DNA of 64,000 nt from Escherichia coli (GTDB lineage Bacteria; Pseudomonadota; Gammaproteobacteria; Enterobacterales; Enterobacteriaceae): the NCBI RefSeq assembly GCF_051903065.1, contig NZ_CP178438.1; one strand, written 5' to 3'. Numbering within the stretch: position 1 is the stretch's first letter; the number at the start of each line of letters is the position of its first letter. Under the pieces are notes generated by a model. That model was not told where the DNA came from and ran no database searches. It saw only the letters and a list, made by a program, of their open reading frames with translations. Below are positions 1,825 through 18,782 of this stretch, in pieces. The position numbers and the translations under genes were made by a program.

Positions 1825-2928
1825 GCAAAACAGTTTCCCTCCTCACGCAATCTGGAAAAATTTGGTGAGGCCCGACAAGATTTAACCATAAAAGAACTGG
1901 CTGAAAAATTTCTGGCACTGAAAGAAACTGAAGTCGCCAAAACATCACTCAACACATACCGTGCCGTCATCAAAAATATCCTAAGCATAATCGGTGAAAA
2001 AAATCTTGCCTCATCGATTAATAAAGAAAAATTACTGGAGGTTCGTAAAGAGCTACTGACTGGATACCAGATCCCCAAAAGTAACTATATTGTTACACAA
2101 CCAGGGAGATCGGCTGTAACTGTAAATAATTACATGACAAATCTTAACGCCGTGTTCCAGTTTGGTGTTGATAACGGTTACCTGGCAGATAATCCGTTTA
2201 AGGGGATCTCGCCATTAAAGGAATCAAGAACCATTCCGGATCCTCTTTCGCGGGAGGAATTTATCCGTCTTATCGATGCGTGCAGAAATCAGCAAGCAAA
2301 AAATTTATGGTGTGTTTCTGTTTATACTGGCGTTCGCCCTGGTGAGCTGTGTGCACTTGGATGGGAGGACATAGATCTGAAAAATGGAACAATGATGATC
2401 AGGAGAAATTTAGCAAAAGACCGTTTCACGGTACCAAAAACACAGGCGGGAACCAATCGGGTCATTCATCTTATTAAGCCAGCAATCGACGCTCTCCGGA
2501 GTCAGATGACATTAACGAGACTGAGCAAAGAGCATATCATTGATGTTCACCTCAGAGAGTATGGCAGAACAGAAAAACAAAAATGCACCTTTGTTTTTCA
2601 ACCTGAAGTATCAGCGAGAGTAAAAAATTATGGTGACCATTTTACCGTTGACTCAATAAGGCAGATGTGGGACGCAGCGATAAAACGTGCCGGACTCCGC
2701 CATCGAAAATCATATCAGTCGAGACATACTTATGCCTGCTGGTCGCTGACTGCTGGTGCTAACCCGGCATTTATAGCAAACCAGATGGGCCATGCAGATG
2801 CGCAAATGGTATTTCAGGTATACGGAAAATGGATGTCTGAAAACAATAATGCACAGGTAGCTTTGTTAAATACACAGTTAAGCGAGTTTGCCCCAACCAT
2901 ACCCCATAACGAAGCAATGAAAAATTAA
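1825..2928 (+). pseudogene. intQ: prophage tyrosine integrase, 5'-truncated (open frame of 368 codons continues from the IS1 junction; no start codon until 2134)
   Basis: Reading frame open from the IS1 end to TAA at 2926-2928. C-terminal catalytic domain motifs are visible (…GVRPGELCALGWEDIDL…, …HLIKPAIDAL…, …SRHTYACWSLTAGANPAFIANQMGHAD…). The N-terminus is missing. Confidence 0.8.
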
Positions 2929-3115
2929 TTTAATATTTATCAAATAGTTGACACGTATGACTCTTGAAATCCATAAATTCAAGCGCAGTGCCCAGCCATC
3001 CCGATACTGCTGCTTTCACCAAATCCTTAGTGCTTCTTTCGTGTTTTTCTATTGTCATAATGGTTATCTCTAAAAAAGAGGTAAGATGCGTACTACTTAC
3101 TCGCCGTTATTGGTA

Positions 3116-4135
3116 TTATTCAGAAAAAGTGAGTAAGACTTTGCAGCAATGTTTTTGATCCTGTTCAAATAAACTAATGGCATCAGCAACATGCTGGAAA
3201 TCAAACGTATGGGTAATTAATTTTTCTGGTTTAATTAACCCTTTACTTAACCAGTCGATAACGACCGGAAATTTATTTGCATTTAAGCGTGAAGAGAAAA
3301 TAGAGAGTTCTTTTCCGGTAATTCCTTGCTGAATCACTTCAGACGGTTCACTGGAGAAGCCCATCAATACAATACGTGCCGCTGGAGAAGCCAGCGTTAC
3401 GGCCTCTTTCAGGATAGAAGGATGACAAGCCGCATCAATAATTAATGTCGGCTTTATGCCTTTTTCAGCGAAAATCTCGCCAAGCGGTGTCTGGCTGTTA
3501 TTAATCACCCAGTCAGCCCCGCTCTCTTTCGCTTTTTCCAGTCGTTCATCAATGCGATCGGCAACAATCACATTTTTAACGTTATAGACGCCTTTTAATA
3601 CCTGAACGATCGTCAGGCCGATTGGACCGGCACCATAAACCAGAACGGTATCATTTTCAGTCGGTTGACCATGTCCGGTTACGTTAGCCGCAATGGTAAA
3701 AGGTTCGATCATCACCGCATATTGATCGGCCACTGCTTCAGGAATTTTCCACGCATTTTTTGCCGGAACCACAGCATATTCACTGAAACCACCGTCAACA
3801 TGCACACCTAATACAGCGAGTGTCGTACAAACGTTCGGCTTACCTATAGAGCACGGATAGCAATGACCACAGCTGACCACCGGATCGACAGCAACACGTT
3901 CACCGACTCTGGCGCTTTCCACACCTTCACCCACCGCATCAATGACGCCAAAGAATTCATGTCCAATGACGCGCGGATATTTCGCAAAAGGATTATGCCC
4001 ACGATAAATATGGCTATCTGAACCACAAATTCCGGCAAGTTTTACTTTTACTCGAACTTCACCCGCTGACGGGGTGGGTATTTCACGTTCGATAATCGCC
4101 AGTTGATTCGGTTTTTCAATTAAAATGCTTTTCAT
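3116..4135 (-). CDS. rspB: Zn-dependent alcohol/polyol dehydrogenase-like starvation-sensing protein
   Basis: Start set at the MKSILIEKPNQL Met. GHEF and Cys-rich Zn-binding motifs and a Rossmann GAGPIG are present. Confidence 0.9.
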   Translation of the reverse strand: MKSILIEKPNQLAIIEREIPTPSAGEVRVKVKLAGICGSDSHIYRGHNPFAKYPRVIGHEFFGVIDAVGEGVESARVGERVAVDPVVSCGHCYPCSIGKPNVCTTLAVLGVHVDGGFSEYAVVPAKNAWKIPEAVADQYAVMIEPFTIAANVTGHGQPTENDTVLVYGAGPIGLTIVQVLKGVYNVKNVIVADRIDERLEKAKESGADWVINNSQTPLGEIFAEKGIKPTLIIDAACHPSILKEAVTLASPAARIVLMGFSSEPSEVIQQGITGKELSIFSSRLNANKFPVVIDWLSKGLIKPEKLITHTFDFQHVADAISLFEQDQKHCCKVLLTFSE

Positions 4136-4146
4136 TAACTTACTCC

Positions 4147-14724: not shown

Positions 14725-15339
14725 ATGACCCATTTTTCACAGCAAGATAATTTTTCTGTCGCGGCGCGCGTGTTGGGCGCGCTGTTTTATTACGCTCCAG
14801 AGAGTGCTGAAGCCGCACCTCTGGTTGCGGTACTCACCAGTGACGGCTGGGAAACTCAGTGGCCTCTACCAGAAGCGTCATTAGCGCCGCTGGCGACGGC
14901 TTTTCAGACACAGTGTGAAGAGACTCTCGCCCAGGCCTGGCAGCGTTTGTTTGTCGGCCCGTGGGCACTGCCGTCTCCGCCGTGGGGATCGGTCTGGCTG
15001 GATCGCGAATCTGTGCTGTTTGGCGATTCAACATTGGCACTTCGTCAGTGGATGCGCGAGAAAGGCATTCAGTTTGAAATGAAGCAAAATGAACCGGAAG
15101 ATCATTTTGGTTCATTGCTGTTGATGGCTGCGTGGTTGGCGGAGAATGGTCGCCAGACAGAATGCGAAGAATTGCTGGCATGGCACCTTTTTCCCTGGTC
15201 AACACGTTTTCTTGACGTTTTTATCGAAAAAGCAGAACACCCTTTCTACCGTGCACTGGGTGAACTGGCTCGCTTAACGCTGGCGCAATGGCAATCACAA
15301 CTGTTAATTCCTGTCGCGGTTAAACCATTCTTTCGATAG
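14725..15339 (+). CDS. dmsD: Tat proofreading chaperone for DMSO-reductase-family enzymes
   Basis: Start at MTHFSQQDNFSVAARVLGALFYY…; 204 aa; last gene of the ynfEFGH-dmsD operon. Confidence 0.9.
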   Translation: MTHFSQQDNFSVAARVLGALFYYAPESAEAAPLVAVLTSDGWETQWPLPEASLAPLATAFQTQCEETLAQAWQRLFVGPWALPSPPWGSVWLDRESVLFGDSTLALRQWMREKGIQFEMKQNEPEDHFGSLLLMAAWLAENGRQTECEELLAWHLFPWSTRFLDVFIEKAEHPFYRALGELARLTLAQWQSQLLIPVAVKPFFR

Positions 15340-15532
15340 GATCACTGTAATATTGCCGGATGGTGACGATTACGCGCGATTCGGCAACAATACGTTACAG
15401 TGTCACGTTTTTTGTCTCTTAAAGCACGCACTGCTTTTGCAGCTGGCCTCTTTTGCCGCAAAATAGTCGCCCGTGTTTCATTGCCCATTTCTGCTCATGC
15501 ATCATCTACACACCTATCCGGATCTGCGCACT

Positions 15533-16789
15533 ATGTTCCGCCGTCTGCTTATCGCAACAGTCGTCGGTATTCTCGCGGCCTTTGCCGTTGCCGGGTTTCG
15601 TCATGCGATGCTGCTACTGGAGTGGTTGTTCCTCAATAATGACTCCGGCAGTCTGGTCAATGCAGCGACAAACCTTTCCCCTTGGCGACGGCTGCTAACT
15701 CCGGCGCTCGGCGGACTGGCGGCGGGTTTGTTGCTGATGGGCTGGCAGAAATTTACCCAGCAACGCCCTCATGCGCCGACCGATTATATGGAAGCGTTGC
15801 AAACCGAGGGTCAGTTTGATTACGCAGCAAGCCTGGTTAAATCGCTTGCCTCTCTGCTGGTAGTAACCAGCGGCAGTGCAATTGGTCGCGAAGGTGCGAT
15901 GATTCTTTTAGCTGCCCTTGCCGCCTCCTGTTTTGCCCAACGTTTTACGCCACGCCAGGAGTGGAAATTATGGATCGCCTGTGGGGCCGCGGCGGGAATG
16001 GCTGCGGCCTATCGTGCCCCGCTTGCTGGCAGTTTATTTATAGCCGAAGTGCTGTTTGGCACTATGATGTTGGCCTCTCTCGGCCCGGTGATTATTTCCG
16101 CCGTCGTGGCATTGCTGGTTAGCAATCTGATTAATCATAGCGACGCGTTACTCTACAGCGTACAACTCTCAGTGACGGTTCAGGCTCGTGACTATGCGCT
16201 GATTATCAGTACAGGTGTGCTGGCAGGTCTGTGCGGACCACTGTTGTTAACGTTAATGAACGCCTGTCATCGTGGATTTGTAAGTCTCAAGCTTGCGCCG
16301 CCCTGGCAACTGGCACTGGGCGGCTTAATCGTGGGTCTGCTTTCCCTGTTCACACCTGCAGTGTGGGGCAACGGCTATAGCACCGTACAATCCTTTTTAA
16401 CCGCCCCGCCACTGTTAATGATCATTGCCGGGATCTTCCTCTGTAAACTGTGTGCCGTGCTGGCGAGTAGTGGTTCCGGCGCGCCCGGTGGTGTCTTTAC
16501 ACCGACGCTATTTATCGGTCTTGCCATTGGCATGTTGTATGGTCGTAGCCTGGGATTATGGTTCCCTGATGGCGAAGAAATTACGCTTTTACTCGGATTG
16601 ACCGGGATGGCGACACTGTTGGCGGCAACCACGCACGCGCCGATTATGTCGACGTTGATGATATCTGAAATGACCGGGGAGTATCAGCTACTCCCCGGTT
16701 TATTGATTGCCTGCGTAATTGCGTCGGTAATTTCGCGGACGTTACACCGTGACTCTATCTACCGCCAGCACACTGCGCAGCATAGCTAA
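15533..16789 (+). CDS. clcB: ClC-family voltage-gated chloride channel / H+-Cl- antiporter
   Basis: Start at [17 protein letters not shown]. ClC motifs GSAIGREG and GxFxP (GGVFTP) are present; 418 aa. Confidence 0.9.
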
Positions 16790-17437
16790 GCGGATGTATT
16801 GCCCCAGTTCACGCTGTTCGGCGCGCGGCAGATAAGGCAGTTCACCAATGAGCGGTGCCGGAAGTTTTTTACCGAGCACATCAATGATTTCCGCATAATG
16901 CGCCAGTCCTGGGTTGATTCGGTTAGCCACCCAGCCAATGAGCGGCAGCCCGTCGTTGGCAATCGCCTGAGCTGTTAGCAGTGCATGGTTAATGCAACCT
17001 TCCTGAATACCGACAACCATCAACACCGGCAGTTGTTCCTGCACCACCCATTCAGAGAGTGGACGCAAATCATTCATCAGACTGCGCCAGCCGCCAGTCC
17101 CTTCTACCACGACATGATCGACTTTTTCGGTCAGGTTTGCCAGGCCGTTTGAAATGAGGGTGTAATTGATTGGGCAACTGTGCGCCACGCTACTTTCTTC
17201 TTCGCTTAACGCGATAGGATTAACTGCTTCATAAGGCAGTTCGATGGTTGAAACACTCTGCAACACCAGGGCATCTTTATTACGCAGCCCTTCGGGTGTC
17301 TCTTTGCTCCCCTTCGCTACGGGTTTATATCCCGCAACCGTTTTTCCCTGGGAGGCTAACGCTTGTAGCAATGCGCGGGAAACCACCGTTTTCCCTACAG
17401 AAGTGTCTGTACCGGTAATAAAGAAACGCTTCAGCAT
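16742..17437 (-). CDS. ynfK: dethiobiotin synthetase paralog (BioD2)
   Basis: Start at [18 protein letters not shown] (P-loop); 231 aa. The 3' end overlaps the clcB 3' end by 48 bp on the opposite strand. Confidence 0.9.
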
Positions 17438-17561
17438 CACTAACTCCACCGTTATGCTTCACAAATATAAACCAGGAAAATAATTAACCTTGAAAGTCTA
17501 AGTTATGCTTTCCTGGCCCAAATTGAGATAGCGCAAATTTTGGTAGAACAGTTAAAAAATG

Positions 17562-18782
17562 TTAACCCTGCAACAGACGAATCAACAAAGAACCGTTATA
17601 CATCGCGTCTTTTACCAGCGCAGCGCCTGCCATCGTACCCTGGTTAGAAAACTGAGTACTCTCAACGCTAATGTGCTGACTATACGCAGGAAGGGCCTGC
17701 TGACGGATGCTATCTGAGATGACCGGGAAGAGGATATCTGCCGCTTTACTTAACGGTGAGCCAATCAGTATTTTTTGTGGGTTAAATAAATTCACCATGA
17801 TGGCAAGAATGCGCCCTACATGCGCGCCCACCCCGGTAATGATGTCTTTTGCCAGCAGATCGCCGCGCAATGCCGCCTGACACAATGAGTCCACGGTTAA
17901 CGGTTGCCCATGTAACATCGAGCTCATGGATTGATTGAGACGCAGCTGTGCCAGCTCAAGAATACTGTCCACACTGGCGATGGTTTCGAGGCAGCCGTGG
18001 TTCCCGCAATAACAGCGTTTACCATATGGGTCTACCTGTGTGTGACCTATTTCCACGAGGCTACTGCTGCCTGCGTGTAGCAGATGACCATCGGTAATGA
18101 CGCCCGCCCCCACGTTGTGATCGATAACCACCTGAATCACATCGCGCGCCCCGCGTGAGGCACCAAACAAGGCCTCTGCCATCGTCCATGCGCTGATATC
18201 ATGCTGTATATAAACCGGAACGCCGGTATGCTGCTCCAGAGCCTCGCCGAGCGGCATCTCTTTTACATCCTCGTAGAACGGCATGCGATGTACAATGCCA
18301 TTTTCCGTATCAATAATTCCCGGCAGGGTTATGGCAATCGAAGTTAGACGCTCAAGTTTTTTCTGGTGGCGGATAAAAAACTGATCGATATGGGAAATGA
18401 TACGATCCAGCAATGGCGAGTCATCTTTTAACGCCAGTTCCTGCGACTCTTCCACCACCAGTTTGCTGCTCAGATCGCGCAGAGCAAGGAAAATCTCCCC
18501 GCGACTAATGCGCAGAGAAAGATAGTGCCAGGCTTCAGTTTCAACCACCAGCCCCACCGCCGGACGGCCACGGTTCCCCGCTTCTTTGATTTCCAGCTCT
18601 TGCACCAGGTGTGCTTCGAGCATCTCACGGACAATTTTAGTGATACTGGCAGGAGCCAGCTGCGCCAGACGGGAAAGATCGATACGCGAGACTGGACCAA
18701 GCTGATCAATCAGGCGATAAACCGCGCCCGCGTTGGTCTGCTTTATTTGATCAATGTGCCCAGGCTGGTTTTCAGCAACCAC
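17562..18782 (-). CDS. mlc: ROK-family global repressor of PTS/glucose uptake genes (Mlc/DgsA)
   Basis: 406 aa, MVAENQPGHIDQIKQTNAGAVYRLI… with the ROK Zn motif CYCGNHGCLE. Confidence 0.95.
   Translation of the reverse strand: MVAENQPGHIDQIKQTNAGAVYRLIDQLGPVSRIDLSRLAQLAPASITKIVREMLEAHLVQELEIKEAGNRGRPAVGLVVETEAWHYLSLRISRGEIFLALRDLSSKLVVEESQELALKDDSPLLDRIISHIDQFFIRHQKKLERLTSIAITLPGIIDTENGIVHRMPFYEDVKEMPLGEALEQHTGVPVYIQHDISAWTMAEALFGASRGARDVIQVVIDHNVGAGVITDGHLLHAGSSSLVEIGHTQVDPYGKRCYCGNHGCLETIASVDSILELAQLRLNQSMSSMLHGQPLTVDSLCQAALRGDLLAKDIITGVGAHVGRILAIMVNLFNPQKILIGSPLSKAADILFPVISDSIRQQALPAYSQHISVESTQFSNQGTMAGAALVKDAMYNGSLLIRLLQG

Follow-up and report, generated by a model that had tools for sequence, protein, structure and literature searches.

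The convergent genes clcB and ynfK of Escherichia coli share the last 48 bp of their coding sequences. This overlap is very probably genuine and ancient, since sequence comparison across the Enterobacteriaceae points to two real genes with authentic C-termini that limit each other's choice of codons. A conserved hairpin within clcB probably marks the 3' end of the ynfK mRNA. The overlap itself is already part of the public annotation and, being present in every E. coli annotation and belonging to a well-described class, it changes little on its own. What is added here is its family-wide conservation, the constraint that the codons of the two genes can be seen to place on each other, and a hairpin, conserved within clcB, that is a candidate for the 3' end of ynfK. 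The pair thereby offers a clean worked example in which both tails appear to be real and the mutual constraint on codons can be seen directly.

Position and register of the overlap

The analysed window is a stretch of 64,000 nucleotides of E. coli contig NZ_CP178438.1, in which the following features were placed.

15533–16789, plus strand: clcB coding sequence with the K-12-type start MFRRLL, 418 aa; stop TAA at 16787–16789
16742–17437, minus strand: coding sequence of ynfK, also known as bioD2 and, in K-12 RefSeq at present, as bidA; a paralog of dethiobiotin synthetase with 231 aa
16742–16789, both strands: tail-to-tail coding overlap of 48 bp, ClcB 404–418 plus stop against YnfK 217–231 plus stop
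16742–16744, minus strand: ynfK stop TAA, which is the ClcB Leu404 codon TTA (ORF listing and sequence)
16787–16789, plus strand: clcB stop TAA, which is the YnfK Leu217 codon TTA (sequence and translation of both strands)
16760–16762, plus strand: ClcB Tyr410 codon TAC, which is the YnfK Val226 codon GTA (HMMER alignment to ClcA)

The initial annotation had described a 48 bp convergent overlap at 16742–16789 in which the last 16 codons of clcB and of ynfK are encoded on opposite strands of the same DNA. The overlap is borne out by the ORF listing, by the sequence and by RefSeq, both in an identical strain and in K-12, and the translations agree, with 15 sense codons and a stop contributed by each gene. 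The two frames are exact antisense codons, position 1 lying opposite position 3 and position 2 opposite position 2, so that the TAA of each gene is the reverse complement of a leucine codon TTA of its partner. RefSeq/PGAP has the identical 48 bp overlap in a strain whose identity to a 1,001-base query (window 16300–17300) is 100% and where clcB runs from 2198 to 3490 on the plus strand and bioD from 3443 to 4138 on the minus strand. The same overlap is found in the RefSeq record of K-12 MG1655 (clcB 1665315–1666571, plus; bidA 1666524–1667219, minus), which has no base differences from the window across the overlap or the hairpin described below. The locus was found in 5420 of 5426 complete E. 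coli genomes. Shared 3' coding nucleotides, recognised homologs and lengths that agree with those of orthologs place clcB–ynfK among the convergent overlapping pairs.

With regard to the upstream ends and the names, the start of clcB is ambiguous: K-12 RefSeq places it at 15533 (418 aa) and PGAP, in the identical strain, at 15497, 36 nt earlier (430 aa). The NCBIfam ClcB profile extends 11 positions N-terminal of the K-12 start. The K-12 gene b1593 (window 16742–17437) is now named bidA in RefSeq, with the product 'dethiobiotin synthetase BidA'; a literature search found no paper behind this gene name.

The two proteins and their C-termini

The gene identities given in the initial annotation hold, as both proteins score above curated cut-offs. 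ClcB reaches 860 bits against the NCBIfam profile NF002437 (cut-off 425), in an alignment that runs to the end of the profile. The Pfam domain Voltage_CLC (PF00654) covers ClcB residues 60–402 and profile positions 1–346 of 346, ending before the overlap. Ungapped HMMER alignments pair ClcB 402 with ClcA 437 and ClcB 5–410 with residues 36–445 of 1kpl (Salmonella ClcA), and they align ClcB Tyr410 with ClcA Tyr445, known from structural work on CLC proteins as the central chloride-site tyrosine at the start of helix R. This residue is encoded by TAC or TAT in all 64 loci with clcB. ClcB combines a complete Voltage_CLC domain with the central anion-site tyrosine of helix R, as befits a member of the CLC family. 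Compared with the E. coli CLC Cl-/H+ exchanger ClcA, ClcB aligns through the Tyr445 position; ClcA, however, extends 28 residues past this tyrosine and ClcB only 8. Likewise, the NCBIfam 'ClcB-like' profile has 577 positions, of which ClcB reaches position 433 only.

YnfK matches the TIGR00347 bioD profile with 135 bits (cut-off 83) and the E. coli BioD structure 1a82 with E = 2.9e-65, YnfK 3–220 aligning onto BioD 2–224, that is, up to the last residue of BioD. Since the alignment stops at YnfK 220, residues 221–231 are a paralog-specific tail; the two proteins align over the whole fold, but YnfK alone has these 11 extra C-terminal residues. The P-loop GTDTSVGKT occupies residues 9–17, with G15, K16 and T17 invariant. 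This full-length fold match together with an N-terminal P-loop GxxxxGKT assigns YnfK to the BioD family, its activity being a prediction. The Pfam AAA_26 domain ends at residue 207, before the overlap. An AF2 monomer model of YnfK has a mean pLDDT of 91, with values of about 49 or less for residues 221–231, and in this model the tail is outside the BioD fold. Whether or not clcB is present, the tail has an evolutionary rate about four times that of the rest of YnfK, and at least 84% of the loci in either group keep L224, D227, R228 and A231.

Conservation beyond chance

In this register, a stop codon is generated in one gene only by TTA, CTA or TCA in its partner. Together these three codons have a share of 4.3% in clcB and of 3.0% in ynfK, and the probability that a run of 15 codons stays open is about 0.5–0.6. 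Open frames of this length are therefore unremarkable by themselves, and the feature that exceeds chance is their conservation and not their length.

To sample the family, one genome per species was scanned with YnfK, which yielded 80 Enterobacteriaceae loci; with YnfK as the query, the sample consists of loci that bear ynfK. YnfK is 231 aa long and stops at the same codon in 80 of 80 species. An overlap of at least 27 bp (range 27–66 bp) was found in each of the 64 species with intact clcB, distributed as follows.

48 bp: 32 species, in Escherichia, Klebsiella, Kluyvera, Raoultella and others
45 bp: 15 species, in Citrobacter and Salmonella
66 bp: 13 species, in Enterobacter and Leclercia
39 bp: 1 species
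27 bp: 3 species (loci L004, L065 and L072)

Thus, it is the position of the clcB stop that shifts between genera, the ynfK stop being fixed. In all 64 species, ClcB ends 1–14 residues past the conserved tyrosine and, as it always reaches at least one codon beyond this residue, the overlap is never shorter than 27 bp. In the ortholog alignments, neither gene terminates upstream of the overlap in any ortholog, an outcome in keeping with the initial annotation.

Some individual loci deserve mention. L004 (E. coli E69), L065 and L072 have an in-frame clcB stop directly after Tyr410-Arg/His; it appears that a ClcB ending one residue past the tyrosine is tolerated, or else that these copies are inactive. 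In one E. coli O166:H15 genome (L002; NZ_AP041805.1 1759234–1767331), clcB and the 3' part of ynfK have been lost, bioD is flagged by PGAP as 'missing C-terminus', and an autotransporter gene and hipBA occupy the place. Locus L037 (CACSKA010000003.1), titled 'Chryseobacterium sp. 18061', has an Enterobacteriaceae-type ynfK–clcB arrangement with a YnfK 88% identical to that of E. coli, and this assembly is probably mislabelled or contaminated.

Codon cross-constraint revealed by loss of clcB

clcB is absent from 12 of the 80 loci, and a further 4 retain only a 3' fragment or a pseudogene; YnfK has 231 aa in all of them. The lineages without clcB provide a natural experiment, in which the choice of stop codon, the rare arginine and valine codons and the forced leucine codons relax.

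ynfK stop (opposite ClcB Leu404): with clcB (64 loci), TAA 51 and TAG 13; without clcB (12 loci), TGA 8
YnfK 226 (opposite ClcB Tyr410): with clcB, GTA 58 and ATA 6; without clcB, GCC, GCG or GTT 9
YnfK Arg228 (opposite ClcB Ser408): with clcB, AGA 38 and CGA 19; without clcB, CGT 4, CGC 4 and CGG 1
YnfK Ala231: with clcB (64 loci), GCG 57; without clcB (12 loci), GCC 7

With clcB present, the ynfK stop is TAA or TAG, and hence the antisense codon is always leucine (TTA or CTA). As the codons lie exactly opposite each other, each gene restricts those of its partner. Going by these counts, Tyr410 and Ser408 of ClcB force the rare codons GTA/ATA and AGA/CGA on YnfK and, conversely, the ynfK stop forces a rare leucine codon (TTA or CTA) on ClcB Leu404. 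Without clcB, alanine is among the replacements of Val226 GTA, and the amino acid at Arg228 is retained. The retention of tail amino acids through synonymous change indicates that the YnfK tail is under purifying selection of its own at the protein level. The constraint of the DNA in two frames, proposed in the initial annotation, is thus seen in the codon choices that shift after the loss of clcB.

A conserved hairpin within clcB

A stem-loop to which the initial annotation does not refer follows ynfK on its own strand, inside the coding sequence of clcB.

16673–16699, minus strand: stem of 11 bp with a loop of 5 nt, within the clcB codons T-G-E-Y-Q-L-L-P-G, 42–70 nt downstream of the ynfK stop

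The stem has 7 GC pairs and folds at about -21 to -21.5 kcal/mol in E. coli and its relatives, and the 102 nt downstream of ynfK have a fold z-score of -3.5. In an alignment of 65 sequences, 93% of cells are standard pairs, as against 19–44% with the partners slid. At pair 19–33, 35 sequences have C-G and 18 have G-C, and this pair couples a replacement between E and Q in ClcB with a synonymous CTC/CTG switch in a leucine codon; the other variation is mostly G-U wobble. The covariation consists of this one clear pair only, and there may be few evolutionary events behind it. Codon usage within the stem departs from the local clcB background: threonine is ACC in 61 of 61 cases against 28%, proline CCC in 61 of 61 against 14%, glycine GGG in 51 of 61 against 25% and glutamate GAG in 19 of 20 against 29%.

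The stem also outlasts its host gene. It is retained in the clcB pseudogene or fragment loci L012, L022, L050 and L053 and, flanked by deletions, in Trabulsiella (L046) and Lelliottia (L074), which have no clcB. In other clcB-less loci (L040, L044, L014 and L017), canonical terminators directly follow ynfK, and some of these may belong to the new convergent neighbour. The stems of the Citrobacter loci L017 and L014 were considered as retained copies of the hairpin and were not counted, as only one arm matches; these stems may be terminators of separate origin that ynfK has in common with the convergent ABC-transporter gene. This neighbour, a three-gene ABC transporter operon whose ATPase starts with MIKLENLTKQF, is the convergent one in L014, L017, L033, L044, L060 and L074, all clcB-less, in which a hairpin-bearing spacer lies about 50–155 nt downstream of the ynfK stop, before the operon. 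The spacer hairpin may be a shared bidirectional terminator.

Next to the tail of the hairpin, window positions 16664–16666 encode ClcB Ser385 (TCT) in the motif MI(C/S)EMTG. This residue is cysteine (TGT/TGC) in K-12 and in all other 64 aligned species, and the serine is strain-specific.

The end of the ynfK transcript

The ynfK gene is directly activated by FNR and induced anaerobically. As there is no intergenic spacer, its transcript must end inside clcB, and a Rho termination region is reported at this site.

16732, minus strand (K-12 1666514): top coordinate of the Rho termination region, 10 nt past the ynfK stop

Supplementary file 2 of Adams et al. 2021 (eLife e62438) classifies the region as 'primary' for ynfK and 'antisense' to clcB, with upstream and downstream reads of 85 and 11 without BCM and of 292 and 159 with BCM. 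The Rho score is 4.2 (p = 1.5e-6), a coarse measure taken over 800 nt windows in a single aerobic condition. The Term-seq tables of the same study list no 3' end for ynfK or clcB; for ynfK, this is probably due to its FNR-dependent induction being anaerobic.

On the ynfK strand, the hairpin has the GC-rich stem-loop of an intrinsic terminator but lacks an uninterrupted U-tract, the tail being UCAUUUCAG. A consensus terminator scan did not call it a terminator on the minus strand, where canonical T-runs were confined to loci that lack clcB, L017 and L014 among them; the same scan flagged the stem (16672–16700) on the plus strand only. Strong intrinsic termination at the hairpin was rejected because this U-tract is weak and the read-through is BCM-sensitive. 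When 15300–17700 was scanned permissively against Rfam, the only match was at chance level (E = 0.99, with 22 bits where the gathering score is 55).

In Dar and Sorek 2018, Rho-terminated E. coli transcripts are described as ending just downstream of stable stems without a U-tract, and such stems as protecting against 3' exonucleases. By analogy, the clcB hairpin is probably a protective stem or a weak terminator that would form the stable 3' end of the ynfK mRNA, and it may have some intrinsic-terminator activity. Rho would stop ynfK transcription inside the antisense clcB, and the embedded stem would define and stabilise the 3' end. The Rho termination region suggests that read-through of ynfK into antisense clcB is normally curtailed and not exploited. 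The fuller proposal, that the 3' end of the ynfK mRNA is encoded within the convergent clcB and is kept across the Enterobacteriaceae by synonymous choice in clcB, has in our judgement an even chance of being right. If it is, some 120 bp of DNA would be under three layered constraints, those of two proteins and one RNA structure, and the repeated natural loss of clcB would be a ready-made system in which to measure codon constraint between overlapping genes.

Alternative explanations

Three other readings were weighed against these data. One holds that the overlap is an annotation artefact, with the true end of one gene lying further upstream, or with one tail being a recent read-through, devoid of function, that followed the loss of a stop codon. 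Such errors are common in annotated convergent overlaps above 60 bp, 124 of 178 of which proved to be 3'-extension misannotations in Palleja et al. 2008, and here both tails lie beyond the Pfam domains, the YnfK tail combines low pLDDT with its roughly fourfold faster evolution, and the position of the ClcB stop is variable. An artefact, however, would sit badly with a ynfK stop that is invariant in 80 of 80 species, with the survival of D227, R228 and A231 through synonymous codon change even where clcB is gone, with a ClcB that always extends at least one codon past the conserved tyrosine, keeping the overlap at 27 bp or more, and with a ClcB match that reaches the end of the curated NCBIfam profile. 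Ortholog stops, overlap lengths and clcB-less codons, as read from the aligned genomes, largely refute this reading, and we regard it as scarcely credible. A genuine overlap of two authentic coding ends is retained in what follows.

The two remaining alternatives concern the role of the hairpin and of the overlap. The hairpin could serve clcB itself, through a translational pause or mRNA stability, or could be a by-product of the peptide TG(E/Q)Y..LPG, unrelated to the 3' end of ynfK. It does lie within a conserved CLC motif, threonine and glycine, glycine and proline, and glutamate and leucine codons can be mutual complements, so the palindrome is partly driven by the peptide, and the consensus scan sees its terminator-like element on the clcB strand. 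Nonetheless, a peptide-driven palindrome does not account for codons as uniform as ACC (61/61 against 28%), CCC (61/61 against 14%) and GAG (19/20 against 29%) or for leucine CTC/CTG switches in step with the E/Q change, and a function in clcB is at odds with the persistence of the stem where clcB is deleted (L046, L074) or is a pseudogene with internal stops (L012, L022). A clcB-centred role is therefore unlikely on these grounds. More doubtful still, and in our view distinctly improbable, is that the overlap is a regulatory device by which convergent transcription or a duplex of the 3' ends lets FNR-induced ynfK lower clcB, or the reverse. Interference or antisense effects, as suggested in the initial annotation, are plausible in principle: ynfK responds to FNR and to anaerobic conditions, transcripts that read through have no spacer to cross before they become antisense to the other gene, and inhibition of Rho raises the reads past the ynfK stop from 11/85 to 159/292. 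Moreover, crosstalk between convergent 3' ends is reported for E. coli arfA and mscL, and collision of RNA polymerases at convergent pairs has been described (bioRxiv 2022.10.23.513370). Yet, in the single condition for which there are measurements, read-through is held back by Rho, the ynfK stop is followed by a stable hairpin, and the repeated loss of clcB with ynfK retained implies that ynfK is independent of its partner, which counts against such a device. A stem that would mark the end of ynfK, in a pair of real genes, is the reading preferred here.

Relation to known systems

Convergent overlapping gene pairs, of which E. coli has 75, form an established class (Rogozin et al. 2002, cited through Palleja et al. 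2008; Huvet and Stumpf 2014). Convergent pairs account for about 7% of all overlaps, and only in this orientation can long overlaps be genuine (Palleja et al. 2008). Like clcB–ynfK, the conserved convergent pairs are real genes that share 3' coding ends through movement of stop codons, with lengths that are multiples of three allowed. At 48 bp, clcB–ynfK stands at the long end of the class, below the 60 bp that define a 'long overlap'. While most long convergent overlaps are limited to very close species (Palleja et al. 2008), that of clcB–ynfK is family-wide, and its partner-loss lineages expose the cross-constraint between codons unusually cleanly.

The hairpin resembles the Rho-dependent, stem-protected 3' ends of Dar and Sorek 2018 in having a stable stem, a poor U-tract and a reported BCM-sensitive region. 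It differs from that type in that the stem sits in the coding sequence of a convergent gene and would be kept by the synonymous codons of that gene.

Recoding or deleting clcB, or editing its last 120 bp or so, would alter the YnfK C-terminus and probably the 3'-end hairpin of ynfK, a point of relevance to engineering. Bidirectional terminators at convergent gene pairs were reportedly described by Ju and co-workers in 2019. Termination by collision of RNA polymerases at convergent gene pairs has been put forward by Wang et al. (bioRxiv 2022.10.23.513370). As in pairs with bidirectional terminators, clcB–ynfK has no room for two terminators, and one palindrome could act on both strands; here, however, the element lies inside an open reading frame and 90 nt short of the clcB stop. 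Ribosomes on the clcB mRNA would translate through the hairpin, and it cannot serve as the clcB terminator. Past the clcB stop, no terminator was found for this gene on the plus strand between 16790 and 16920, which folds no better than shuffled sequences (z = +1.4) and in which the consensus scan was empty.

Origin of the overlap

Homology to other proteins extends into the overlap from both sides: YnfK 217–220 are homologous to the end of BioD, and ClcB 404–410 to the start of CLC helix R, relatives of ClcB being longer at the C-terminus. The ancestral core of each gene therefore has its end within the overlap, and each gene extends by a few codons across the core of its partner. The most likely origin of the overlap is a juxtaposition of the two 3' ends with a shift of the stop codons. 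A rearrangement or deletion would have joined these ends and eliminated the former stops, and each frame would then have stayed open as far as the first TTA, CTA or TCA of the opposite strand. With a stop only every 23–33 codons in this register, an overlap would be a near-automatic result of such an event.

An outgroup YnfK (P0125, locus L083; 65% identity) keeps the mlc–ynfK synteny, has no clcB next to it and ends in a 12-residue tail of unrelated sequence. In L083 (GCA_001238615.1, LFQL01000042.1), which lies outside the Enterobacteriaceae set, the order ynfM–ynfL–mlc–ynfK is retained, and a xanthine/uracil permease gene on the same strand as ynfK stands in the place of clcB.
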